This document shows, in pieces, positions 1,938 to 14,672 of a stretch of DNA of 64,000 nucleotides. A program made the position numbers and the translations under genes. Within the stretch, counting starts at the first letter, position 1; each line of letters begins with the position of its first letter. The notes under the pieces are model-generated. The model was not told the origin of the DNA and ran no database searches. It saw nothing but the letters and a program-made list of their open reading frames with translations. Source of the DNA: Pseudomonadota bacterium (GTDB lineage Bacteria > Pseudomonadota > Gammaproteobacteria > UBA9214); the NCBI GenBank assembly GCA_039714975.1, contig JBDLIH010000005.1, positions 12,857-76,856 of the forward strand. Direction: 5' to 3'.

Positions 1938-2348
1938 ATGGCTGTAAAGGCGGGGTATTTTCATCGACAGTCCGGGGTTATCCCTTACCGGGTGCGCAAG
2001 GGGGAGCTTGAGATCCTCCTCATTACCTCACGAAAAAAACGCCGCTGGATTATTCCCAAGGGCATCATCGAACCCGATTTCACTGCGCGCCACTCGGCCG
2101 CCAAAGAGGCGTTTGAAGAAGCCGGTGCCATGGGCGATGTGCACGACAAGCTACTTGGCCGCTATCAGCACAGGAAGCTGGGCAGGGACTGTACCGTCAA
2201 GGTATATCCGATGCGTGTTACCCGGACTTACAAGGTATGGGAAGAAGCCGATCGGGACCGCGAATGGGTGTCGCTGAAGAAAGCACTCAAACGAATCAGT
2301 AATGGCGGATTAAAGCGGGTATTGAGGAAGTTACCGCAAACGGTCTGA
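1938..2348 (+). CDS. Nudix hydrolase, DIPP/Aps1-like subgroup
   Basis: Nudix box region PKGIIEPDFTARHSAAKEAFEEAGA. Paralogous to the C-terminal half of the ORF at 20217-21176. Confidence 0.8.
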   Translation: MAVKAGYFHRQSGVIPYRVRKGELEILLITSRKKRRWIIPKGIIEPDFTARHSAAKEAFEEAGAMGDVHDKLLGRYQHRKLGRDCTVKVYPMRVTRTYKVWEEADRDREWVSLKKALKRISNGGLKRVLRKLPQTV

Positions 2349-2434: not shown

Positions 2435-3739
2435 TTATAAAATCACCCGTTCGGGCGGGAAGTGGCAGGTAAAGGTGCTGCCGCCTCCCACCGTGCTGAT
2501 GATTTCCAGTTCTGCCTCGTGACGCTCAAGTACGTGTTTGACGATGGCCAGTCCGAGGCCGGTTCCCCCGGTATCCCGCGAATGGCTGGCATCGACACGG
2601 TACAGCCGTTCAGTCAGTCGGGGGATGTGGCGGGGGGCAATGCCTTCGCCGGTATCCGTCACACTGAGGCGGGCACCCGCATGATCCACTTGCCAGCGGA
2701 CACTGACTTCCGCCTGGTTCGGGGTGTGTCTGATGGCATTGTTAACCAGATTTGAAAAAGCGGTACGGAGTTCCTTTGCGTTGCCGTGTAATCCGCCGGG
2801 TGAACGGATGTCCAGATGCAGTACATGCTGCGCTGCACCACTCAGGGTGCGTGCTTCCTCAATAATCGTTGTGAGCAGCTCCGCTATCGGAACGTGTTCG
2901 TCAGATGTGGATTTCTGTTGTATCTCCAGTCGAGACAATGTCAGCAGGTCGGACACCAGTTCACTCATGCGTCTTGCCTGTTGAACTATCAGTTCGGTTG
3001 ACCGTGACAGTATGGCCGGATCAGGTTTGTCTGTGTTCAACTGTTCAGCAAGTCCGGATATGACGGTCAGTGGGGTGCGCAGTTCATGCGACACATTGGC
3101 GACGAAGTCACGCCGTGCCGTATCGAGGTAATACTGGCGGGTAATGTCTCGCGCCACCAACATTAGCCGGTCGGCTTCATGTTTCAGCTGGGTGATAAAA
3201 ACCGAGAGGATCTTTGCCCGGTTTGCCGGAGAGGTAATGACCAGCGGCATGGCAAAATCACCGTTTGCCAGATATTCCCCGAGTACCGGGTCCGGTACAA
3301 GAGCGGTCAGTAAATCACCCTGTGAATCCGGCCATACGATATTTAGCAGGTTTCCGGCGGCGGGGTTGGACCAGTCGACCCGGCCTGACGGGTCCAGGAT
3401 GACCACGGCATCCGGTAGTGTGTTGACTGTGTCCCGAAAACGGCCAAGTTGCGAGGAGAGATCACGACTGCGAGTGTGGTTACTGAGATGCAGGCCCTGT
3501 ATTTCCCTGGCGATACCTTTCCACAGCCCCCTTGAATACGGCCCGTCTTGACCCTCATCCCCAAGCAGGTGCGGCAGACGGGCCAGTTGATACAAATGCC
3601 AGCCGAGATAAACCAGCAGACCGAGCATCAGGCAGGGCAGCAATTGTCCCGTTAGCGTACCTGCCAGGCCTGCTGCGAGCATTATCCCGAGGAACAGCCG
3701 GAGTTCTTCTTGCCAGTGGTTGGGCATGGAGAACATCAT
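2435..3739 (-). CDS. phoR: Phosphate regulon sensor histidine kinase PhoR
   Basis: Hydrophobic N-terminus, PAS-like region, H-box FVANVSHELRTPLTVI, and ATPase domain DTGEGI...GGTGLGLAIVKH. Lies directly downstream of phoB. The track start (TTG 3895) reads through the 90-bp repeat at 3771-3859. The first ATGs after it are 3739/3736/3727, so the start is uncertain. Confidence 0.85.
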   Translation of the reverse strand: MMFSMPNHWQEELRLFLGIMLAAGLAGTLTGQLLPCLMLGLLVYLGWHLYQLARLPHLLGDEGQDGPYSRGLWKGIAREIQGLHLSNHTRSRDLSSQLGRFRDTVNTLPDAVVILDPSGRVDWSNPAAGNLLNIVWPDSQGDLLTALVPDPVLGEYLANGDFAMPLVITSPANRAKILSVFITQLKHEADRLMLVARDITRQYYLDTARRDFVANVSHELRTPLTVISGLAEQLNTDKPDPAILSRSTELIVQQARRMSELVSDLLTLSRLEIQQKSTSDEHVPIAELLTTIIEEARTLSGAAQHVLHLDIRSPGGLHGNAKELRTAFSNLVNNAIRHTPNQAEVSVRWQVDHAGARLSVTDTGEGIAPRHIPRLTERLYRVDASHSRDTGGTGLGLAIVKHVLERHEAELEIISTVGGGSTFTCHFPPERVIL

Positions 3740-3770
3740 ACAAGGTAGAGTCGATCCAGAAACAATAATT

Positions 3771-3859
3771 CTCGCCAAGGCGCAAAGACGCAAAGAAAAA
3801 TATAATACACTTGCGAACTGTACGATTTTAACTTTGCGAGCTTTGCGTCTTGGCGAGAG
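3771..3859. repeat. ~90-bp intergenic element with ~22-bp terminal inverted repeats (copy 1)
   Basis: Left arm ctcgccaaggcgcaaagacgc, AT-rich centre, right arm gcgagctttgcgtcttggcgagag. Same architecture as 5431-5520. No coding capacity. Confidence 0.85.
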
Positions 3860-3891
3860 AGAATTACGGTGTTTAGGGAGTGATTCCGTGT

Positions 3892-4578
3892 TCAATCGTG
3901 TGTGGAAAACCGGTAGCCGCTACCGCGAACGGTCTGAACCAGCTGATCGTGTCCTGACGGCTCCAGCGTCTTGCGCAGGCGGCGTATGTGAACATCAACG
4001 GTGCGTTCCTCGACCCAGGCGCTGGTTCCCCAGACCTGGTCGATTAATTGCTGACGGCTGTAAACTCGTTCCGGATGTGTCATGAAGAACTGCAGTAACT
4101 GAAATTCCATAGGCGCCAGTTCCAGCGAGCTATTATTGATGCTGACCCGGTGAGTCGCCGGGTCCAGCCGCAGTGTCCCGGTTTCCAGAATTTCCCCGCC
4201 GCTGTCCCGGTGGGTGCGGCGCAGCACCGCCTTGATGCGTGCCAGCAGTTCGGAGACCGAGAAGGGTTTGGCGACATAATCATCTGCGCCGGCCTCCAGC
4301 GCGGCCACCTTGTCTTCCTCTTCAGCCCGCGCCGTTAACATGATGACGGGTATTTGTTTATGGACGGAATCCCGCTGCAGTGCACGGGCAAACTCGTATC
4401 CGGATTGACCGGGGAGCATCCAGTCGAGCAGGACCAGGTCAGGTGCCTGGTTGGCAATTGTTTGCCGGGCATCCAGTGTGTTGCCGGCCTCCTGTACCTC
4501 ATAGCCGCCACTCATCAGCGCCAGCTTGATCATCTCGCGAATAGCGGGATCGTCTTCAACGACAAGGATTGTCGGCAT
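3892..4578 (-). CDS. phoB: Phosphate regulon response regulator PhoB
   Basis: Receiver domain ILVVEDDPAIREMI...DLVLLDWMLPG plus OmpR/PhoB winged helix ...VQTVRGSGYRFS. Start moved to ATG 4578 (MPTILVVEDD), 13 nt after the pstB stop. Confidence 0.9.
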   Translation of the reverse strand: MPTILVVEDDPAIREMIKLALMSGGYEVQEAGNTLDARQTIANQAPDLVLLDWMLPGQSGYEFARALQRDSVHKQIPVIMLTARAEEEDKVAALEAGADDYVAKPFSVSELLARIKAVLRRTHRDSGGEILETGTLRLDPATHRVSINNSSLELAPMEFQLLQFFMTHPERVYSRQQLIDQVWGTSAWVEERTVDVHIRRLRKTLEPSGHDQLVQTVRGSGYRFSTHD

Positions 4579-4591
4579 TGATTCTGGATTG

Positions 4592-5395
4592 CTATCCGTA
4601 GCGGCCCTCGATGTAGTCCGCCGTTTCCTGTTTCTGTGGCGTGACGAACATGTCATCGGTGGCGGTGTGTTCCACGACCTTGCCCATCAACATGAAGATG
4701 CACTCTTCACTGGCACGGCGTGCCTGGGCCATGTTGTGGGTTACGATCAGAATGGTGTACTTGCCGCGCAGTTCCCAGATCAGCTCTTCCACGGCCTCGG
4801 TGCCTTTGGGATCGAGGGCGGAGCAGGGCTCATCCATCAGCAACAGGCCGGGCTTGACGGGCAGCAGACGGGCGATACACAGCTTTTGCTGCTCCTCCAG
4901 TGATAGCTCGGTGGCCTTGCTGTCCAGCCGGTCCTTGACCTTGTCCCATAACAGGACCTGGCGCAGGGCGCTTTCGGCAATCTCGTCCTGTTCACTGCGC
5001 GGTGCACGTTTGCCTTCCGCATGCAGGTTATAGCCAAACAGTACGTTGTCACGGATGGAGATCGGCAGGGGGTTCGGGCGCTGGAAAACCATGCCGATCT
5101 GTTTTCTGACCTGCACGAGTTCCACGGCCGGATCATAGATGTTGTTTCCGAAGACGTCGATCGTGCCATCGATACGAACATAGCCCAGCCGTTCGTTGAT
5201 GCGGTTGACGCTACGCAGGAAAGTGGACTTGCCGCAACCGGAAGGTCCTATGAGGGAGGTGATGATGCCTTGTTTGATACCGAGATCGATATCGAACAGC
5301 GCCTGAAACGTCCCGTACCAGAGATTCAACTGTTCTGTCCGGATGGCATAGTCCATCGGGTTATCAATGACTGCCTGGCTATTTGTATTCATCAT
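4592..5395 (-). CDS. pstB: Phosphate ABC transporter ATP-binding protein PstB (degenerate signature motif)
   Basis: Walker A GPSGCGKST, Q-loop MVFQRPNP, Walker B LLLMDEPCSALD, H-loop VTHNM. The signature reads LSLEEQ instead of LSGGQ. The track start is TTG 5404 and the first ATG is 5395. Confidence 0.9.
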   Translation of the reverse strand: MMNTNSQAVIDNPMDYAIRTEQLNLWYGTFQALFDIDLGIKQGIITSLIGPSGCGKSTFLRSVNRINERLGYVRIDGTIDVFGNNIYDPAVELVQVRKQIGMVFQRPNPLPISIRDNVLFGYNLHAEGKRAPRSEQDEIAESALRQVLLWDKVKDRLDSKATELSLEEQQKLCIARLLPVKPGLLLMDEPCSALDPKGTEAVEELIWELRGKYTILIVTHNMAQARRASEECIFMLMGKVVEHTATDDMFVTPQKQETADYIEGRYG

Positions 5396-5430
5396 AACAT
5401 CCAAGGATTTTCATAAATGCTGCAATTTTT

Positions 5431-5537: not shown

Positions 5538-6341
5538 TCACCCGAACCGTCCCTCGACATAATCCCGGGTGCGGGGATCCTTGACCTCGCCGGTAAACAG
5601 GTCCTCGGTTTTGCCAATTTCCACACACTCGCCATTGAGGAAAAAAGCGGTACGGCTGGCGAGTCGTCGTGCCTGCTGTACCAGGTTCGTCACCAGGATG
5701 ATGGTCATTTCCTGTTTCAGTTCCTTGAGGACATCTTCAATACGCATGGTTGTCACCGGGTCGACGGCAATGGAAAACTCGTCGAGCATCAGTACTTCCG
5801 GTTCCTGGGAGAGTGCCCGGGCAATCGTCAGACGCTGCTGCTGGCCTCCGGAAAGCAGGCTGCCGAGGGAATTCAGCCGGTCCTTGACCTCGTCCCAGAG
5901 TGCGGCGCGGGTCAGGCAACGCTCGACGATGACGTCGAGGTCAGCCTTGTTTTTCAATCCCGAGAGGCGTGGGGAGAGGGCTACATTGTCATAAATGGTC
6001 ATCGGCAGACCGACCGGCAGGGGGAACACCACGCCGATACGGGAACGCAATGCGTAGACATTTCTCAGACGACGGATATCAAGACCGTTGAACTGGATTT
6101 CACCTTCGACATGCATGTTGGAATCGAACATGTCCATGCGATTCAGTGTCTTTAGGAACGAGGTTTTACCGGCGTTGGCCGGGCCGATGATGCCGAAGAT
6201 TTCGTGTTCGCGTATGGCCAGGCTGACATTACTGAGTGCCGGTGTATTGCCATAGCGAATGGACAGGTCGCGCACTTCCAGCTTGACGGGTACCTGTTCT
6301 GTTACCGTTTCGTGTACGGCTGTCTGTGTACTGGCTACCAT
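5538..6341 (-). CDS. PstB-like ABC ATPase paralog with degenerate Q-loop and H-loop
   Basis: Walker A GPANAGKTS, intact signature LSGGQQQRL, Walker B VLMLDEFSIAVD. The Q-loop Gln is replaced (VVFPLP) and the H-loop His is replaced (VTNLVQQ). Confidence 0.85.
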   Translation of the reverse strand: MVASTQTAVHETVTEQVPVKLEVRDLSIRYGNTPALSNVSLAIREHEIFGIIGPANAGKTSFLKTLNRMDMFDSNMHVEGEIQFNGLDIRRLRNVYALRSRIGVVFPLPVGLPMTIYDNVALSPRLSGLKNKADLDVIVERCLTRAALWDEVKDRLNSLGSLLSGGQQQRLTIARALSQEPEVLMLDEFSIAVDPVTTMRIEDVLKELKQEMTIILVTNLVQQARRLASRTAFFLNGECVEIGKTEDLFTGEVKDPRTRDYVEGRFG

Positions 6342-7204
6342 TTCTTTTTACCCCGCAACCAGGTACGGAAGGCGATGGAGAGGCTGTTCATCAACAACAC
6401 CATGGCGATGAGCACCAGGGCAACACCATAAGGCAGGTTCTCGGGTACACCGGGCACCTGCGTCGATACCACGAACAGGTGCAGGGACATGGCCATGGTC
6501 TGGTCAAAGATACCCTGCGGCAGGAACGGGGTGAAGAATACCGCGCCGGTAAACATGATGGGAGCGGTCTCGCCGGAGGTGCGCGACACCTCGAGAATGA
6601 CACCGGTGAGGATGCCGGAGACGGCATTGGGCAGTACCACGCGGCGGATCGTCTGCCAGCGGGTGGCGCCCATGTTCCAGCAGGCCTCGCGAAATGCATG
6701 CGGGACTGCCTGCAGGGACTCGCGGGTTGCAACAATCACCACTGGCAGGGTCATGATGGCCAGCGTCAGACTGGCTGCGAGAATGCTGGTGCCAAAGCCG
6801 AAAAACAGCACAAAGGCGCCGACGCCAAACAGGGCATGCACGATCGACGGGACACCGGCCAGGTTGATGATGGCCAGGTTGATGATGCGGGTAAACCAGT
6901 TCTCGCCGGCGTATTCACTGAGATAGATGGCGGCTGCAATTCCCAGCGGTACGGAAATGAGTAACGCCACCGCGACCAGCCACATGGTACCCAGCAGGGC
7001 AGGGAAGATGCCGCCTGCGGTCATGCCGTCGGTCGGGGCGGTGAACAGGAAATCGATGGAGATGACCGAGCCGCCCTTTACAATCAAGGTTCCGAGGATG
7101 AGCAGTACTGGTAGAATCAGCAGCACAGTCATCAGCAGGAACAGGATATTGAAGAGTCGCTGGACCCGCTGGTTCCTGATGTTGAGTGCAGATGTCTCAA
7201 ACAT
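6335..7204 (-). CDS. pstA: Phosphate ABC transporter permease PstA
   Basis: Polytopic permease with ...ESLQAVPHAFREACWNMGATRWQTIRRVVLP. ATG 7204 lies just after the pstC stop (7209-7211). The track start is TTG 7234. Confidence 0.9.
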   Translation of the reverse strand: MFETSALNIRNQRVQRLFNILFLLMTVLLILPVLLILGTLIVKGGSVISIDFLFTAPTDGMTAGGIFPALLGTMWLVAVALLISVPLGIAAAIYLSEYAGENWFTRIINLAIINLAGVPSIVHALFGVGAFVLFFGFGTSILAASLTLAIMTLPVVIVATRESLQAVPHAFREACWNMGATRWQTIRRVVLPNAVSGILTGVILEVSRTSGETAPIMFTGAVFFTPFLPQGIFDQTMAMSLHLFVVSTQVPGVPENLPYGVALVLIAMVLLMNSLSIAFRTWLRGKKKW

Positions 7205-7208
7205 GGTC

Positions 7209-8141
7209 TTAGCCTTTGCGTACGCCGCGTACAATCAGATCGGCGGTGAGGTTAATAATGAAGGTGATCAGGAACAGGAAGATGCCGATGGTGAACAGTA
7301 CCTGGTAGTGATCGGAACCCACGGCAGTCTCACCCAGTTCGGCGGCAATCGTGGCCGTCAGGGCGCGCACCGAGTCGAAGATGCTGCCCGGGATGTTGAT
7401 CGAGTGACCTGTCGCCATCAGCACAGCCATGGTTTCACCGAAACCCCGGCCGACACCGAGCAGTACCGCACCCAGCAGGCCGTTTTTTGCAGCCGGCAAT
7501 ACCGTTTTGTAGATGACCTGCCAGCGGGTGGCGCCCATAGCTTCAGCCGCTTCACGGTAGCGGTCAGGCACTGCCTTGAGTGCATCCTCGGCGATGGAGG
7601 TCATGATAGGTGCGGCCATCAATCCGAGGATGATGCCGGCGTTCAGTACGTTCAGTCCCACCGGGACATCAAAGAGTTCAATAATCAGCGGGTTCATGAT
7701 GCTGAGACCTATGAAGCCCCAGACTACCGAGGGGATGGCGGCCAGCAGTTCCACCAGTATCTTGAGGATTTCCCGGGTCTTGCCGGTGGCAAACTCGGCA
7801 ATGTAGACCGCCGCACCCAGTGAAAACGGAATGGCCACCAGCATTGCCAGTCCGGTGACACTGGCCGTGCCCGCGATCAGTGCCAGGATGCCATATTCCG
7901 GATCTTCCTCCTCGGCAGGGTACCAGTAGGGTGAGGTGAAGAATTCCTGGAAATCAAAACGGTCGAGAATAAAACCGAAGCCTTCCTTGGTGACAAAGGC
8001 AAAGATACCAACGACGAAGATGATGGCCGAGATGCCGCCGATGAAGACCAGCAGCTGGACCAGCTTGTCGATATACCAGTCGGCGTTGCGGCGATCGAAG
8101 TCAGCCGCATGGCGACTGCTTGTCGAGGGTTGAGTGGTCAT
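7209..8141 (-). CDS. pstC: Phosphate ABC transporter permease PstC
   Basis: ...AEDALKAVPDRYREAAEAMGATRWQVIYKTVLPAAKNG. ATG 8141 lies 1 nt after the upstream stop (8143-8145). The track start is GTG 8159. Confidence 0.9.
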   Translation of the reverse strand: MTTQPSTSSRHAADFDRRNADWYIDKLVQLLVFIGGISAIIFVVGIFAFVTKEGFGFILDRFDFQEFFTSPYWYPAEEEDPEYGILALIAGTASVTGLAMLVAIPFSLGAAVYIAEFATGKTREILKILVELLAAIPSVVWGFIGLSIMNPLIIELFDVPVGLNVLNAGIILGLMAAPIMTSIAEDALKAVPDRYREAAEAMGATRWQVIYKTVLPAAKNGLLGAVLLGVGRGFGETMAVLMATGHSINIPGSIFDSVRALTATIAAELGETAVGSDHYQVLFTIGIFLFLITFIINLTADLIVRGVRKG

Positions 8142-8142
8142 G

Positions 8143-9228
8143 CTAGGTGGCGCCTTCACCGCGCAGGGCTTCCATCAGGTCACGGACCTGGACAGCCGTA
8201 TCGCGGTAAATCTCTTCCAGCCGGCTGATGCCAGCTTCATCGCTATTTTCCGGGGCGGGGCCGACATCCCACTCCAGGGGAGTTGTGTGGAAGGGGACCT
8301 GGTCGAAGTAGGATTTGACCGGGCCCTGCAGGCTGACGATGACATGTTGCGCGGTCAGTTCCAGTGCGGTCATGTCAAGCGGTCCGGGTTTGGCAGTGTC
8401 AGCAAGGCTTACGCCATGGCTGTCAAGAAATTCCACCATGGCCGGATTCAGTTCGTTGGCAGGCTGTCGCCCGGCGCTGGTGTAGTTGCCGCTTTCGGGA
8501 AAATGCTTGCGGGCAATGGCCTCGGCGATCTGGCTTTGACAACTGTTGTCCTCGTCAATAAACAGGATGTTGTATACCTTGGGTGCCTTGGTGTCCCCGG
8601 TAGAGGCGAATACCGCTTCTTCGCAGAGGTTCTTGGCCTGGTCTGCGACCCGTTTCAACTGGTTGAAAACGGCGAACATTGCCAGCAGGTTCTTGACTGC
8701 GTCCCGGTCGTCATTGGCCATCAATTCGGAATAAATGATATCCAGATCATTCTCCATCTGCTCTTCCAGGATCATGGTGGCTTTTGCCATCTCGGGGTTA
8801 AGCTCGTTAAAGGCCTTGATGGACTGGCCCAGCATGAGTTGCGTCTCGTTGCCGACACGTTCGAGTTCACTGGACATCGGCCCTGACGGAGGTGACGACA
8901 GCTGTATTGCCTCGCGGGCGATGGTGGCTGCGTAATCGCCGATCCGCTCCAGTTCGATGTTTGCCCGGATCACGGAAGACAGCAGCCGCAGATGGCCGGC
9001 ACTCGGCAGATGCAAGGCAATGAATTTATGACACAACTGATCGATCCGCCGCATGGCGCGGTTGATCGGGTGGTCTGCAATTACGGTAGCGGATGCGAGT
9101 TTGCCGTTGCCGGTTTGCAGTGCATGCATGGCATTCCTGACCGCTGTTTCCACCAGCCCGGCCATGTCTGCTACCTGCTCGCGGATAACGATCAGGTCTT
9201 TTTCCAGACGTTCTTCATAGTGACTCAT
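8143..9228 (-). CDS. PhoU-domain protein fused to a catalytically degenerate LMW-PTP/ArsC-like domain
   Basis: The N-terminal ~220 aa is a PhoU duplication (...ANIELERIGDYAATIAREA..., ...VFNQLKRVADQAKNLCEEAV). The C-terminal ~130 aa aligns to the LMW-PTP/ArsC fold (NILFIDEDNSCQSQIAEA...YTSAG...NP). Its P-loop is D-x5-Q instead of C-x5-R. Confidence 0.8.
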   Translation of the reverse strand: MSHYEERLEKDLIVIREQVADMAGLVETAVRNAMHALQTGNGKLASATVIADHPINRAMRRIDQLCHKFIALHLPSAGHLRLLSSVIRANIELERIGDYAATIAREAIQLSSPPSGPMSSELERVGNETQLMLGQSIKAFNELNPEMAKATMILEEQMENDLDIIYSELMANDDRDAVKNLLAMFAVFNQLKRVADQAKNLCEEAVFASTGDTKAPKVYNILFIDEDNSCQSQIAEAIARKHFPESGNYTSAGRQPANELNPAMVEFLDSHGVSLADTAKPGPLDMTALELTAQHVIVSLQGPVKSYFDQVPFHTTPLEWDVGPAPENSDEAGISRLEEIYRDTAVQVRDLMEALRGEGAT

Positions 9229-9302
9229 TGTCTAGCGTCCCGTTGTGTCAAGTCGGGTTAGGCCGCAAGGCCATAACCCGGCAGGGTGTAAGAAATTGCG
9301 GC

Positions 9303-10175
9303 TCAATCGCACTTCACGGCGTGTATCGGGGCATAGCCTTTCTTCACCAATATGCATTGACCGGCATCGCTATGAATCCAGTCCATGTAGCTCTTGATCG
9401 CACCCCGGGGTTCGCCGTTGGTATACATGAACAATGGACGGGCAATCGGGTAGCTGCGGTCACTGGCTGTTGCCACGCTCGGGCTTACACAGGCATCCGC
9501 ACCGTCTGTGGCGATGCAGACCGACTTGAGGTGGTCCGTTGCGTAAGCCAGACCACTGTAGCCGATGGCGCAGGGTGTCTTCTCGACCAGGTCAACGACA
9601 TCCTTGGAGCCATGCATGTCCAGAGTGCCCTGGCGATACTTGCCTTTCTTGCCCAGCACGGTCTCTTTGAAATAGGCGTAAGTGCCGGAATTGTTCTGCC
9701 GGCTGACGACCACAATTTCATCCTTGCAGCCGGGTACGGTGATACCCATGTCCGACCACTTTTTGACCTTGGGGTCACGGCCATAGATATCCTTCAACTG
9801 TGCCAGCGACATGGACTTGACCGGGTTATTCTTGTGAATAAATACGGCCAGCGCATCGAAACCGACAACATGTTCGACCGGTGACTGGCCATTTTTCTTG
9901 GCCAGGTCCATTTCCTTGCCCTTCATTTTGCGGCTGGCGTTGGCGATATCCACGGTGCCGTTGATCATGGCGGCAATGCCGGTACCGGAACCACCGCCGG
10001 AAACCGCAACAGCAACATCGGGGTTAACCGTGGGATAGGCTTCTGCCCAGGCCTGGGCCACATTAACGAGAGTGTCGGAACCCTTGTTCTGAATCAGGGT
10101 GCGTGCCTGCGGGGCCATTGCGGTGAGCAGGGCAGACATCAGCAGCGTGGTGGAAAAAACAAGTTTCAGCTTCAT
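9303..10175 (-). CDS. pstS: Phosphate-binding protein PstS
   Basis: Signal peptide, then GSDTLVNVAQAWAEAY...VSGGGSGTGIAAMINGTVDIANASR. Start set to ATG 10175, 9 nt after AGGAG. The track start at 10184 abuts the SD. Confidence 0.85.
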   Translation of the reverse strand: MKLKLVFSTTLLMSALLTAMAPQARTLIQNKGSDTLVNVAQAWAEAYPTVNPDVAVAVSGGGSGTGIAAMINGTVDIANASRKMKGKEMDLAKKNGQSPVEHVVGFDALAVFIHKNNPVKSMSLAQLKDIYGRDPKVKKWSDMGITVPGCKDEIVVVSRQNNSGTYAYFKETVLGKKGKYRQGTLDMHGSKDVVDLVEKTPCAIGYSGLAYATDHLKSVCIATDGADACVSPSVATASDRSYPIARPLFMYTNGEPRGAIKSYMDWIHSDAGQCILVKKGYAPIHAVKCD

Positions 10176-10241
10176 GGGTAACATCTCCTGTTTAGATTAA
10201 TATTAGAAAAATATTAAATCTGTGTTAGCAATGAGCAGCTG

Positions 10242-10275
10242 ACTATAACAGCGGGATGTTACCGTTTTGTTACAA
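10242..10275 (-). promoter_or_regulatory. Candidate Pho box plus -10 hexamer upstream of pstS
   Basis: The minus strand reads TTGTAACAAAACGGTAAC (two half-sites 11 bp apart with an A-rich spacer, roughly 12-14/18 to CTGTCATAWAWCTGTMAY). A 10-nt spacer and TATAGT follow. This is the same geometry as E. coli Pho promoters. Confidence 0.5.
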
Positions 10276-10361: not shown

Positions 10362-10712
10362 CTACTTTTTGCCTTTCTTTTTTCCCTTGCCCTTTTTCTT
10401 GTCCTTGTCTTTTCCCTTGCCTTTGTTCTTTTTCTTTTTTTCCTTTTTGTCTTTCTTGCCTTTGACAGCAACCTTGCTCTGTTTCACTGACGCCCCTTTG
10501 TCTGTGTCTGGCCGGGTTGTTCCTGATTCGGCAAGCAGTTCGGTGGCAGCGGCAATGACCCGGGCTGCACGTGCTTCACTGAAGCCGGGAATGGCAGTGA
10601 TTTGTTCGATTGATGCCTTGGAAAGGCTGACAAGGCCTTTGATGCGATGTTCGGCCAGTGTTTCTGCTGCTGCCGGTCCGATGCCCGGAATATCGATAAT
10701 GGCTGGTTTCAT
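10362..10712 (-). CDS. Helix-hairpin-helix (HhH) DNA-binding protein with histone-H1-like poly-Lys tail
   Basis: HhH motifs IPGIGPAAAETL and IPGFSEARAARV. The C-terminal ~40 aa reads KGKKDKKEKKKKNKGKGKDKDKKKGKGKKKGKK. Confidence 0.7.
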   Translation of the reverse strand: MKPAIIDIPGIGPAAAETLAEHRIKGLVSLSKASIEQITAIPGFSEARAARVIAAATELLAESGTTRPDTDKGASVKQSKVAVKGKKDKKEKKKKNKGKGKDKDKKKGKGKKKGKK

Positions 10713-10926: not shown

Positions 10927-11679
10927 CTATTCCCAGCAAGATATGCGTTGCTTGACATCCTCCCACAGGGCTTCGTAGCAATGGGCCGTGCGACCATTGG
11001 GTGCGAAGTCACCCAGCGGGGTGCGACAGGTCCCCATGCGTTCCACTTGACTGTCGTAGGGTATGGCCGTTTGCAGGAGATTTTTCATGTAGTCCGGCGG
11101 GGTGTCCACGATAGAACTGTGCATTTTTTTGCGGCGATCGACCATGGAGAAGAATGGCAGGATCTTGACGGTATCAAGATCGTGCTGCCGGAAAAACTTT
11201 TGTATCTGCTTGTAGGTACGCAATGACAGGGTGGTGGGTATGGTGGGCACCAGCACGGTGTCGGTTGCCTCGAAGATGTTTTCCGATACCAGGGAAATGC
11301 TCGGCGGACAGTCAAGAAAGACATAGTAATATTCGCTCTTGAAGGGTTTGAGCAGTTTGCGCAACTGGCTTATCGGGTTTTTCGTATGTTCCAGATAGAG
11401 GTCCATCTTGCGGTAGGAAAAATCCGCCGGCAACAGGTCGAGCAGTTCATAATCAGTGCCGCGGATAAAATCTTCCAGGTCACGTTTGCCCTGGACCAGG
11501 CGTTTGCCGCCGCCCTTGATCTTCGGTTTGATACGGAAGTAATAGCTCGCGGCACCCTGGGGATCAAGGTCCCAGACAAGTGTGGGTGCACCCTCGCGGG
11601 CAGCAAGCCAGGCAAGATTGACGGCAGTGGCGGTTTTCCCAACGCCCCCCTTGATATTGTATGTGGCGATTACTTTCAA
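10927..11679 (-). CDS. Orphan ParA/MinD-family ATPase
   Basis: Deviant Walker A KGGVGKTATAVNLA and DLDPQG. Start moved to TTG 11679 (M)KVIATYNIKGG, 10 nt after GGAG and 14 nt below the CHAD gene stop. No parB-like gene is adjacent. Confidence 0.85.
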   Translation of the reverse strand: MKVIATYNIKGGVGKTATAVNLAWLAAREGAPTLVWDLDPQGAASYYFRIKPKIKGGGKRLVQGKRDLEDFIRGTDYELLDLLPADFSYRKMDLYLEHTKNPISQLRKLLKPFKSEYYYVFLDCPPSISLVSENIFEATDTVLVPTIPTTLSLRTYKQIQKFFRQHDLDTVKILPFFSMVDRRKKMHSSIVDTPPDYMKNLLQTAIPYDSQVERMGTCRTPLGDFAPNGRTAHCYEALWEDVKQRISCWE

Positions 11680-11695
11680 GCTTGCGTTTCTCCGG

Positions 11696-13249
11696 CTAAT
11701 GGCTGGATGAGAAAAGTTTTCGGAATCGGTCCTGGTTGTCCTGGCGTGAGAAGCCGGCGTAGCGGCCGGAAAATTCCTCACGTGCCTGGCGCTGGCGCCG
11801 TTCCAGACCATCGATCAGCATACCCATGGCGAGCAGCGTGTCAGGAGGGACTGCGCCTTCGGCAACCATCTGGTGGCTGAATGTTTTCAGGGTGGTGACC
11901 TGTACCTCATAATCCTGAAAGTTACCCAGGTTGTCCTGCAATGTCTTGAGTGTGCGGATTAATTCCTTGATATTGCCGGCCGGGTACAGGCTCAGGAAGA
12001 ACTCCATGAGATAACGCAGTTTCTTGCAGGTCTTGCGCAGTTCATGGAGATCATCCGCGGGCGATTCAGGGGTGATGGCATCGCCTTCCCGGATGACGCG
12101 CCGGAAGATACGCCAGATACGCTCGCTGGCTACCTCAACGACGGGCCGGCCTGCATTTTTCAGCGTCGAGCGTTCGTTGACCGATTCCTCAAGAAAACTG
12201 CGCCAGTTCCTGATCAGACGGCTGTAGCGTGCCGAATTCAGTGCCTTGACCAGGCTTTTGTTTTCAGCTTTCTGGTGTTTGATGAGGAACGTACGCAGTG
12301 GCTCGATATCGGTCTGCACGGCGGCAGGGAGGCTGTTACGGTATTCGTCAAAGTTCAGTAAATAGACATCCAGGTCACGGCTGGGACTGGTTATTTGCCC
12401 GAGCCAGGCAAATTCGGCTTTATATCGGTCAACAATGCGTTTCGGGAACACTGCCTTGATCTGGGAAAGGGCGGAACGGGTACGGCGAATAGCGACCCGA
12501 AAATCATGCAGGAACTCGGTGTCCGTACCGGTGCGTGTGCCGGCCTCGTTTTGCAGCATGATATCAAGTAGCCGATGCAAGATGAGCTTGCTTGCCTCAT
12601 CTGCCCGCATGGCGGGATCCAGTTCCAGGTTCAGTTTGGACGAGTAGTTACCCGGTGTTTCACCGATAGTGGACAGGACCGCCAGCAAGAGATCATCCTC
12701 TGCCGGGCTCAAACCCTGCTGCTGCAGAATTTTTGCTACTGCCTTGCCGGGTTTCGGGAAACCCCTGACCGGAATGATGACTGCCCGATTATCAAGTTTT
12801 CCGGAACGGACTCCTTTCTGTCGAGGCAGGGTGTTTTCCTCGACCACCAGCCAGGCCACCGTTTTTTCGTCCTTGTTCAGGATGCGCAGGGTGTTGGTCC
12901 TGGTGCGAATTCTGAATTTCGGGACCAGTTCGCGCATTTCAAGCACCGGTTCAAGCTGCTTGCGGAGCGGTCCTTGTGGCAGGTCCCAGGCAAATCGGGG
13001 CGCTTTATTCAGCTTCAGGCGGGGACAGCGTTGTTCACCTTTCAGGGTTCGCCATACCAGTGTGTGGCTGTTGCCGTCACGGGTGTCTTCAAGTAGTGAA
13101 TCATCCAGATACAGACGCCAGTCAAAACTGTCATAGTACGTCCGGTAGATCGTCCGTGACGGTTCTGTGAGTAATCGTGTGTTTTCCTGAAGAGTTGACT
13201 GCAAGTCTTCGAAGCACAGGTTCTCGGGAATAATATAATCTATACGCAT
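11696..13249 (-). CDS. CYTH-like (degenerate) / CHAD domain protein
   Basis: CHAD helices EFLHDFRVAIRRTRSAL and DDLHELRKTCKKLRYLMEFF. The N-terminal ~200 aa is CYTH-like (YYDSFDWRL) but lacks ExExK. Start moved to ATG 13249 (MRIDYII...); the longer ORF would overlap the divergent gene. Confidence 0.8.
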   Translation of the reverse strand: MRIDYIIPENLCFEDLQSTLQENTRLLTEPSRTIYRTYYDSFDWRLYLDDSLLEDTRDGNSHTLVWRTLKGEQRCPRLKLNKAPRFAWDLPQGPLRKQLEPVLEMRELVPKFRIRTRTNTLRILNKDEKTVAWLVVEENTLPRQKGVRSGKLDNRAVIIPVRGFPKPGKAVAKILQQQGLSPAEDDLLLAVLSTIGETPGNYSSKLNLELDPAMRADEASKLILHRLLDIMLQNEAGTRTGTDTEFLHDFRVAIRRTRSALSQIKAVFPKRIVDRYKAEFAWLGQITSPSRDLDVYLLNFDEYRNSLPAAVQTDIEPLRTFLIKHQKAENKSLVKALNSARYSRLIRNWRSFLEESVNERSTLKNAGRPVVEVASERIWRIFRRVIREGDAITPESPADDLHELRKTCKKLRYLMEFFLSLYPAGNIKELIRTLKTLQDNLGNFQDYEVQVTTLKTFSHQMVAEGAVPPDTLLAMGMLIDGLERRQRQAREEFSGRYAGFSRQDNQDRFRKLFSSSH

Positions 13250-13337
13250 TTGCTGTCGTGCCCGGATTGCTTTCCGGTAATGAATATATCTGCCCCACGC
13301 TGATAATCCGGTAACCGTATTTTTTATACAGCCCATT

Positions 13338-13372
13338 CTGTCACTAAAACTGCCATTCATGCAATGATAAGT
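13338..13372 (+). promoter_or_regulatory. Pho-box-like direct repeat plus -10-like hexamer upstream of the CNNM gene
   Basis: CTGTCAC-TAAAA-CTGCCAT, then 10 nt, then ATAAGT. The half-site period is 12 bp rather than the canonical 11 bp. Confidence 0.3.
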
Positions 13373-13412
13373 GTATGTTTTGGCAGATCTGGCTGGATTC
13401 TGGTATGAATAT

Positions 13413-14672
13413 ATGATGGAAATTGTTGCTCTGCTGGTGTTGCTGGTTTTTTCCGGAATTTTCTCCGGCTCGGAGACGGCCCTGGTTGCGCTGTCCATGG
13501 CGCGGGTGGGAGCCCTTGTCACGGAAGAGAGAGCGGGTGCGAAGGCGCTCTACCAGCTCAAGAAAGACCCTTCGCGGATGCTGACGACCATCCTGATCGG
13601 TAACAATCTGGTCAATATTGCAGCCTCGGCACTGGCGACGGTTGTTGCAACGCGGGAGTTTGGCAGTGCCGGGCCGGGTATTGCCGTTGGTGTGCTGACC
13701 CTGTTTATTCTGGTGTTTGGTGAAATTACACCCAAGAGCCTGGCGACGCGTTTTTCCGAGCGCATTTCACTGTTTATCGCCTTTCCGTTACTGACATTCA
13801 TGCGCCTGATTTATCCCCTGGTGTGGTTCTTTGGCAATTTCACCAACTGGGTACACCGCCTGACAGGCGGCAAGGGGGATCCAACGGTGACCGAACTGGA
13901 ACTGATCGGGATGCTGGGATACGGTGTTGAGGAAGGCGCCATCGAGCATAATGAGCAGAAAATTATCGAGCGGGTATTTGCCTTCAATGACCTGAAGGTT
14001 CGGGATGTCATGACGCCCAAGGGTAAAATGTTTACCCTGGACAGTGCGCTTTCAGTAGCCGCAGCCATCCCGGTAGTATCGCAGGAGCGCTATTCGCGGA
14101 TTCCCCTGTTTGAAGGACAAAACGATAACATAACGAAGGTGCTATACCTGCGGGACCTGCTCAGGGCTTCTGCCAGCGGGCAGATGGAAGAATCACTGGG
14201 CAGTATTGCCCATGAGCCGCTGTTCGTGTCGCAGTATCAGGCGATCGATGACCTGTTTGCCACCTTGAGACAGCGTAACCGGCTTTTCTCTATCGTGGTG
14301 GATGAATACGGAGATGTACGGGGAATTGTGACGCTCGAAGACCTGCTGGAGGAACTGGTCGGTGAAATCTACGATGAAAGCGATGTTGCGCCACTTGATG
14401 TCGACAGTCTTTCCATGAATGAAATCAGTGTGCCGGGATCTGCTGAACTGCGTGTGGTAGAGGAATTCTTCAATCTGGAACTGCCGGGAAAACCAACCGA
14501 TACGGTCAGTCTGTGGATCTTGAGCCACACGGAATATATTCCCCGCGAGAGTGAAACATTCACAATCGACAATCTGGAAGTCAGGATTGTCAGGGCATCG
14601 GACCGCAGTATCGACCAGGTCAATATACGTTACCCTGCCGGTGTTCCGGACAGTGTTGAAGATGATCAATAA
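13413..14672 (+). CDS. CNNM/CorC-HlyC family transporter (DUF21 + CBS pair + CorC_HlyC)
   Basis: FSGIFSGSETALVAL (DUF21), a CBS pair, and a C-terminal transporter-associated domain. The track start is GTG 13371 and the first ATG pair is at 13413/13416. Confidence 0.85.
   Translation: MMEIVALLVLLVFSGIFSGSETALVALSMARVGALVTEERAGAKALYQLKKDPSRMLTTILIGNNLVNIAASALATVVATREFGSAGPGIAVGVLTLFILVFGEITPKSLATRFSERISLFIAFPLLTFMRLIYPLVWFFGNFTNWVHRLTGGKGDPTVTELELIGMLGYGVEEGAIEHNEQKIIERVFAFNDLKVRDVMTPKGKMFTLDSALSVAAAIPVVSQERYSRIPLFEGQNDNITKVLYLRDLLRASASGQMEESLGSIAHEPLFVSQYQAIDDLFATLRQRNRLFSIVVDEYGDVRGIVTLEDLLEELVGEIYDESDVAPLDVDSLSMNEISVPGSAELRVVEEFFNLELPGKPTDTVSLWILSHTEYIPRESETFTIDNLEVRIVRASDRSIDQVNIRYPAGVPDSVEDDQ

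Follow-up and report, generated by a model that had tools for sequence, protein, structure and literature searches.

The stretch of DNA considered here (the window) comprises 64,000 nucleotides from a bacterium of the gammaproteobacterial lineage UBA9214 (Pseudomonadota; assembly GCA_039714975.1, contig JBDLIH010000005.1, positions 12,857 to 76,856 of the forward strand), and carries an operon for the Pst phosphate importer. Its genes lie on the minus strand in the order pstS, phoU*, pstC, pstA, pstB1, pstB2, phoB and phoR, where phoU* is our name for an unusual phoU gene of 361 codons plus stop (8143..9228; window coordinates given below are also on the minus strand unless a plus sign is shown). 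Based on Pfam and NCBIfam matches, an AlphaFold2 model and Foldseek comparisons, phoU* is a real gene in which PhoU is joined to a domain with the fold of arsenate reductases (ArsC) and devoid of their catalytic residues. The Pst importer of which it is part is a bacterial variant that is conserved but has not been described before, and that has two unlike ATPase subunits. A full-text search of the literature did not find any paper on a fusion of PhoU with an LMWP or ArsC domain.

Architecture of the PhoU* protein

The AlphaFold2 model of PhoU*, obtained with a family alignment of 73 diverse members as input, reached a mean predicted local distance difference test score (pLDDT) of 96.4 and a predicted template-modelling score (pTM) of 0.89. 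It consists of seven helices up to residue 210 (helices within residues 3-210), a short conserved linker, and a series of strand-helix units between residues 219 and 356. The N-terminus of the protein, MSHYEERLEKDL, agrees with the family consensus, the linker between PhoU and the C-terminal domain (TGE-K--K-Y) is conserved as well, and the reading frame is unbroken.

The N-terminal two-thirds of the protein, which the initial annotation had described as a normal PhoU, are indeed so. The six-helix bundle (amino acids 1-214; 8587..9228) contains two stretches matching Pfam PhoU PF01895 (E 6.9e-23), and PhoU* scores 136.3 bits with the NCBIfam model phoU_full TIGR02135, just over its equivalog cut-off of 130.25, while it falls far short of the E. 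coli-type equivalog NF008332 (104.8 bits vs 342). A sequence search of the PDB aligned amino acids 3-211 with the PhoU of Pseudomonas aeruginosa, 4q25 (E 6e-25), and in Foldseek the modelled PhoU part superposed on the same structure with a template-modelling (TM) score of 0.94 and a root-mean-square deviation (rmsd) of 1.3 Å. Like the canonical PhoU proteins of E. coli, P. aeruginosa and Aquifex aeolicus (1t72), PhoU* has a two-repeat six-helix bundle with the D/N...E...D motif, and is encoded in a pst operon beside phoBR. Unlike them, it goes on at the C-terminus for about 145 more residues, which form an ArsC-fold domain, and it shows peculiarities in the bundle itself.

These peculiarities were counted by column over 318 full-length family members, the set behind all counts out of 318 below. 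The metal motif of repeat 1 is kept, with D52, E94 and D98 present in 318/318 members each and N56 in 314/318. In repeat 2, the window protein has K192 at the position of a Glu, where the family is divided between Lys (144) and Glu (117), and the remaining positions are D196 (271/318) and N200 (318/318), a pattern by which this second motif, unlike that of canonical PhoU, appears partly degenerate. In addition, C66, H67, H73, H79 and C202 of the PhoU part are nearly invariant, and among them the three His and C202 (within NICEE) are specific to this family. According to the alignment with 4q25 and to the E. coli sequence as we assume it, several of them set the family apart from ordinary PhoU, which has RQP-xAxDLR where PhoU* has HLP-SAGHLR, and NIAE where PhoU* has NICEE; these near-invariant Cys and His residues could make up a metal or redox site. 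On the same assumed E. coli sequence, the residues A147 and R148 that contact PhoR (PMC4423584) would presumably correspond to N141 and E142, which are variable in the family, a correspondence that we do not use as evidence.

The C-terminal domain (amino acids 219-356; 8161..8574), with four parallel strands and flanking helices, was expected by the initial annotation to have the fold of ArsC and low-molecular-weight protein tyrosine phosphatases (LMW-PTP), and domain searches and structure prediction, the checks it had proposed, both place it there. With Pfam LMWPc PF01451 the protein reaches 29.7 bits, above the gathering score of 23.2, although the match covers only amino acids 221-280. When the C-terminal 147 amino acids were searched alone, they matched ArsC1' of Corynebacterium glutamicum (3t38) with an E-value of 2.5e-8 over amino acids 218-355, and also the ArsC of Bacillus subtilis (1jl3), which a profile of the 73 diverse members hit at E 4.7e-11 (profile positions 223-355 on 1jl3 residues 6-136). 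In the profile search arsenate reductases ranked ahead of protein phosphatases. With the NCBIfam equivalog of thioredoxin-type ArsC, TIGR02691, PhoU* gave a weak match, far under the cut-off (27.8 bits vs 174.3). The Foldseek comparison with the PDB tells the same: the modelled domain superposes on the ArsC of Staphylococcus aureus plasmid pI258 (1jf8) with a TM score of 0.89 and an rmsd of 2.0 Å over 136 columns, followed by other ArsC structures and then by LMW-PTP, Wzb and YwlE. The initial annotation would have been refuted by a C-terminal region that lacked this fold or any such match, and this refutation does not occur. With the thioredoxin-coupled ArsC enzymes of S. aureus and B. subtilis the domain has in common the fold, homology over the whole domain, and the core motifs N-S-C-x-S-Q-x-A-E, S-A-G, N-P and P...W. 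We conclude that the C-terminal third of PhoU* is derived from a thioredoxin-type arsenate reductase.

What sets the domain apart from those enzymes is the loss of their catalytic residues. In ArsC the catalytic roles of Cys10, Arg16, Cys82, Cys89 and the general acid Asp105 are established. In the alignment to B. subtilis ArsC, where IYFLCTGNSCRSQMAE stands opposite ILFIDEDNSCQSQIAE, Cys10 is replaced by D225, Arg16 by Q231, Cys82 by Q301 and Cys89 by F308, and Asp105 falls on G323 or P324. The degenerate P-loop (8533..8556) thus reads D225-E-D-N-S-C-Q231-S232 where ArsC has C-T-G-N-S-C-R-S, just as the initial annotation had noticed when it described C-x5-R as changed to D-x5-Q, and the losses extend beyond these two positions to the general acid and to the two redox cysteines. 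The WDVGP motif, also pointed out there, does not supply the general acid: when its W320 is paired with the Trp of ArsC, Asp105 comes to lie on G323/P324 and not on D321 of the motif. Since all the catalytic residues of ArsC are replaced, neither ArsC nor LMW-PTP chemistry should be possible for this domain, as judged from its residues.

The same losses are found throughout the family. A search with the C-domain alone against 1.84 billion cluster representatives, grouped in clusters at 50 % identity, gave 335 matches with E-values up to 1e-3, of which 178 reached 1e-10 or better. The best 150 of these 178 are either proteins of about 360 amino acids matched at about 215-360, or fragments that retain the PhoU end ERVSDQAKNICEE, from which it follows that the degenerate domain occurs essentially only in PhoU fusions; unlike thioredoxin-coupled ArsC, it is essentially never free-standing nor part of an ars operon. 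The position of Cys10 is occupied by Asp in 296 and by Glu in 19 of the 318 members and never by Cys, and this near-universal change to an acidic residue (315/318) contrasts with the lability of the Arg16 position, with Leu in 143, Gln in 112 and Arg in only 7 of the sequences. The position of Cys82 is mainly Gln or Glu, that of Cys89 is hydrophobic, and the region of the general acid has Gly at 323 in 225 members and Pro at 324 in 148. The 7 members that keep the Arg (e.g. D-E-D-N-A-C-R-S) are spread over at least 4 sub-lineages, and one of them has an 89 %-identical neighbour bearing Gln, indicating that the Arg is dispensable and was repeatedly lost. The survey of P-loops in PhoU::LMWP fusions called for by the initial annotation therefore yields no relative with an intact C-x5-R among the 318, only these Cys-less Arg keepers. 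The other side chains of the P-loop differ widely from one 50 %-identity cluster to another. The C-terminal tail of the protein (L351-M-E-A-L-R-G357-E-G-A-T, 8146..8178; family consensus LMxxLRGExA) is conserved and, in every relative, extends right up to the final residues.

Despite being dead, the domain is not decaying. Over the 91 pairs that the window gene forms with, and among, 13 close relatives having the same length (mean dS about 0.8), the ratio of nonsynonymous to synonymous substitution rates (dN/dS) has a median of 0.10 for the PhoU part and of 0.155 for the C-domain, the latter value indicating that the domain is maintained. With every catalytic position replaced and the domain kept under purifying selection, the reading of the initial annotation as a pseudo-enzyme is well supported, and its accurate label is “pseudo-enzyme of the ArsC/LMW-PTP fold”, rather than arsenate reductase or phosphatase. 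A homologous fold, lost catalytic residues and purifying selection are precisely the features that define pseudophosphatases, such as those of the STYX type or the LMWPc protein mt-SAF26 of a trypanosome mitoribosome assembly intermediate, whose structures (7pua_FW and 6sga_FW) are among the structure and profile matches of the C-domain. As in those proteins, the fold is kept, the nucleophile is gone, and the domain would serve as a non-catalytic part of a larger assembly. Many pseudophosphatases, however, retain the Arg for the binding of phospho-ligands, whereas the PhoU* domain is bacterial, ArsC-derived, fused to a transport regulator, and has lost the Arg too.

The pst operon and its two ATPases

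In the window, phoU* is preceded by pstS (9303..10184), encoding a phosphate-binding protein of the TIGR02136 type, and followed by pstC (7209..8159, with a likely start at the ATG at 8141), pstA (6335..7234), pstB1 (5538..6341) and pstB2 (4592..5404). The operon continues with the response regulator gene phoB (3892..4656), whose open reading frame shares 65 bases with the end of pstB2 and which probably starts at the ATG at 4578, because the conserved receiver domain begins at M27 (MPTILVVEDD), and with the histidine kinase gene phoR (2435..3895), recognized by its PhoR N-terminal, HisKA and HATPase_c domains.

The location of phoU* between pstS and pstC, where the canonical gene follows pstB, was noted as unusual in the initial annotation, and it turns out to be conserved across relatives. 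Within the reach of each contig, 15/15 close loci have the order pstS-phoU*-pstC-pstA-pstB-pstB, and so do seven loci with PhoU* proteins 45-57 % identical (L016, L018, L019, L020, L021, L022 and L023). The order is seen across metagenome-assembled genomes (MAGs) of Gamma- and Deltaproteobacteria. The named carriers of the family are likewise MAGs, assigned to Gammaproteobacteria, Ectothiorhodospiraceae, Pseudomonadales, Sedimenticola sp. and Deltaproteobacteria, and the DNA of the window is present in marine, sediment and cold-seep metagenomes. The stop of phoU* and the probable ATG of pstC lie one base apart (TAGcATG), and the two genes overlap in L016-L018, an arrangement that suggests translational coupling between them.

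A search of the 64-kb window with tblastn found no second phoU or LMWP gene. In L021, on the other hand, an ordinary phoU gene of 234 amino acids follows pstB2 (12790-13494 of that locus, plus strand), alongside the phoU* between pstS and pstC. Since this operon has both genes, PhoU* is a paralogue able to coexist with PhoU, a trait not shared by the canonical protein, and not a mere displaced phoU.

The two ATPases of the operon are only about 35 % identical to each other, and both miss the PstB equivalog cut-off of 343 bits (281 and 316 bits). PstB1 has an intact LSGGQQQR signature, and has Pro for the Gln of the Q-loop, Asn for the His of the H-loop and DEFS as Walker B. PstB2 shows canonical Walker A, Walker B, Q-loop and H-loop, with LSLEEQQK instead of the LSGGQ signature. 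These complementary losses are alike letter for letter in five loci (the window, L018, L020, L021 and L023). In light of what is known about ABC ATPases, the complementarity predicts that PstB1 and PstB2 pair obligately as a heterodimer, in which one ATP site would be of the consensus type and able to work and the other degenerate. Firmicutes, too, have tandem pstB genes, and those of Enterococcus faecalis, which have non-equivalent roles, were studied only recently (PMC12096839). Both cases present two adjacent, non-equivalent pstB genes in one pst operon, but that paper puts the identity of the E. faecalis pair at about 60 %, against about 35 % and complementary motif losses for the pair described here.

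Regulatory signals and neighbouring genes

Upstream of pstS there is a candidate Pho box, the direct repeat TGTAACA-AAAC-GGTAACA (10257..10274), which fits the known layout of two 7-mers at 11-bp spacing. The number of occurrences of the Pho-box pattern in the window is not above chance, and it is the recurrence of the repeat upstream of pstS in relatives, rather than this count, that supports the candidate: 8 close loci carry GTAACA-N5-GTAACA there, on the strand of pstS, and the Sedimenticola locus L023 has it three times in a row.

The 74-nucleotide spacer between pstS and phoU* contains a GC-rich hairpin (9254..9280). Nearly all the equivalent spacers of L001-L015 have one or more strong GC-rich hairpins, with sequences unrelated to each other and different from that of the window, followed by a conserved CACGGGACGCTAGACA right before the ATG of phoU*. 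Sediment metatranscriptome contigs of related organisms span the entire operon, and their depth, which is a rough measure, is about 10-fold higher for pstS than for the downstream genes and about zero upstream of pstS. Such a profile is consistent with a transcript led by pstS that is attenuated, or differs in stability, past this gene.

Directly upstream of the pst cluster lie a gene for a 608-amino acid protein with a CHAD domain (11696-13522), a domain associated with polyphosphate, and a gene for a ParA/MinD-like ATPase (10927-11811). Between them and pstS, the window encodes a small protein that combines a helix-hairpin-helix with a long tail rich in Lys (KGKKDKKEKKKKNKGKGK...; 10362-10712), which has counterparts directly after pstB2 in L018 (13484-13879 of that locus) and L020 (12542-12880), and which might bind DNA or polyphosphate. 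In the distant loci L018 and L022, the operon is adjoined by genes for PPK2, PPK1 and an ATP-cone/metalloenzyme protein. Altogether, these surroundings suggest a phosphate and polyphosphate island. At the other end, just past phoR, there are genes for a 497-amino acid calcineurin-like metallophosphoesterase (237-1730) and for a small NUDIX hydrolase (1938-2348, plus strand), which may be further phosphate-scavenging genes.

Possible roles of the fused domain

PhoU binds PstB and the PAS domain of PhoR, and it is thought to limit transport by Pst when internal phosphate is high (PMC4423584). The way in which PhoU couples Pst to PhoR and brakes phosphate uptake is still not understood. For PhoU*, we lean towards a reading in which the dead domain is a non-catalytic docking or allosteric module, and the whole protein the dedicated regulatory subunit of a distinct Pst subtype. 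PhoU* would take the role of the ordinary PhoU in the subtype pstS-phoU*-pstC-pstA-pstB1-pstB2, and its dead domain would anchor it to the asymmetric PstB1/PstB2 pair, or else to PhoR. Once cytoplasmic phosphate suffices, PhoU* would throttle transport, and perhaps signalling. Given the suggested translational coupling to pstC, the protein would be synthesized in step with the membrane subunits. The acidic residue at the site of the old nucleophile would most likely fill and stiffen the empty P-loop without binding any ligand. There is a functional analogy with the ATPases of other ABC importers, since the C-terminal regulatory domains of MalK, MetN and ModC mediate trans-inhibition, and here too an extra cytoplasmic domain at the ATPase layer would shut the importer once its substrate or a signal is plentiful. 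The likeness goes no further than function: the extra domain of PhoU* is on the accessory protein and not on the ATPase, its fold is unrelated, and no ligand is known for it.

Several observations weigh against this docking role. The link of PhoU* to the PstB1/PstB2 pair is one of co-occurrence only. Moreover, most of the conserved residues of the domain (LF-D, A235, SAG, P312 and W320) belong to the ordinary ArsC core, and for this reason no clear family-specific surface patch stands out beyond the LRGExA tail and the last helix. The Asp/Glu found almost universally at the nucleophile position could also be a pointer to a ligand or metal site.

In an unlikely alternative, which is the reading of the initial annotation, the dead P-loop would still bind an oxyanion, be it cytoplasmic phosphate, arsenate or polyphosphate, and would tell PhoU* to shut the transporter by trans-inhibition. 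P-loops are known to bind anions mainly through backbone amides, and that of PhoU* keeps its length and, in many members, the N-S-C-x-S residues, together with the Arg in the 7 members mentioned above. ArsC is also unusual among the proteins of the LMW-PTP fold in that it uses a free oxyanion, and the gene context of the operon is wholly one of phosphate and polyphosphate. However, the Arg that clamps the anion is absent from 311/318 members, mostly replaced by Leu or Gln at a position that is evolutionarily labile, a carboxylate where the thiolate used to be should repel an anion, and the side chains of the P-loop differ a great deal among clusters.

In a simpler and, in our opinion, rather improbable scenario, the C-domain would only stabilize or oligomerize the protein, and PhoU* would act exactly as an ordinary PhoU. 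The predominance of ArsC core residues among the conserved positions is in line with such an inert appendage, as is the formation of dimers or oligomers by PhoU proteins (e.g. PMC11705898). Under this scenario it would be difficult to account for the strict association of the fusion with one operon layout and with the PstB1/PstB2 pair, for the coexistence of PhoU* and ordinary phoU in L021, or for a C-terminal tail that is conserved to its end.

It is very improbable that D225 is itself a nucleophile, either in an Asp-based phosphatase or as a site phosphorylated by phosphate or a small donor, in the manner of HAD enzymes and receiver domains. The model does place this Asp where strand 1 of a Rossmann-like fold ends, a position that it shares with the Asp of those families, an acidic residue is found there in 315/318 members, and D-E-D-N-S of the window protein resembles DxDx(T/V). 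The residue is nevertheless Glu in 19 members, the second Asp is present in only 22/73 clusters, and the Arg and the general acid are both absent. Furthermore, Pfam gives no match to HAD or Response_reg, and the C-domain matches in the top 50 of Foldseek are ArsC or other LMW-PTP-fold structures, with no HAD or receiver structure among them. The HAD-like or receiver-like reading of ILFIDEDN is thus rejected on the basis of Pfam, the top-50 Foldseek matches and the unconserved second Asp. Finally, a frameshift, assembly or gene-calling error joining phoU to a neighbouring arsC is practically inconceivable and has to be regarded as refuted, given that hundreds of independent contigs from different studies encode the same protein of about 361 amino acids, with a continuous frame, a conserved linker and purifying selection on both parts, and that the two domains are modelled as a single unit with a pTM of 0.89.

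The variant is present in many MAGs of Gamma- and Deltaproteobacteria from marine sediments and cold seeps, with more than 170 clusters at 50 % identity. Its C-domain clearly illustrates how, in bacteria, the fold of an arsenate reductase has been put to new use as a pseudo-enzyme, and there is a lesson for annotation in the fact that these proteins currently go by the name of “hypothetical protein”, “PhoU domain-containing protein” or simply “PhoU”. A more ambitious hypothesis, which we put forward tentatively, is that of an undescribed class of Pst importers, built on an obligate PstB1/PstB2 heterodimer with a degenerate site and having PhoU* as a stoichiometric subunit, whose ArsC-derived domain would either detect phosphate, arsenate or a cation at its Asp-bearing P-loop as a signal from the cytoplasm, or else clamp the two unlike ATPases. 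Because of the extra folded domain, the tight coupling to pstC and the asymmetric ATPase pair, the complex with PhoU* may be more stable and easier to study than that of E. coli. If this hypothesis is true, such a stable transporter-PhoU complex would open the long-unclear mode of action of PhoU to direct structural study.

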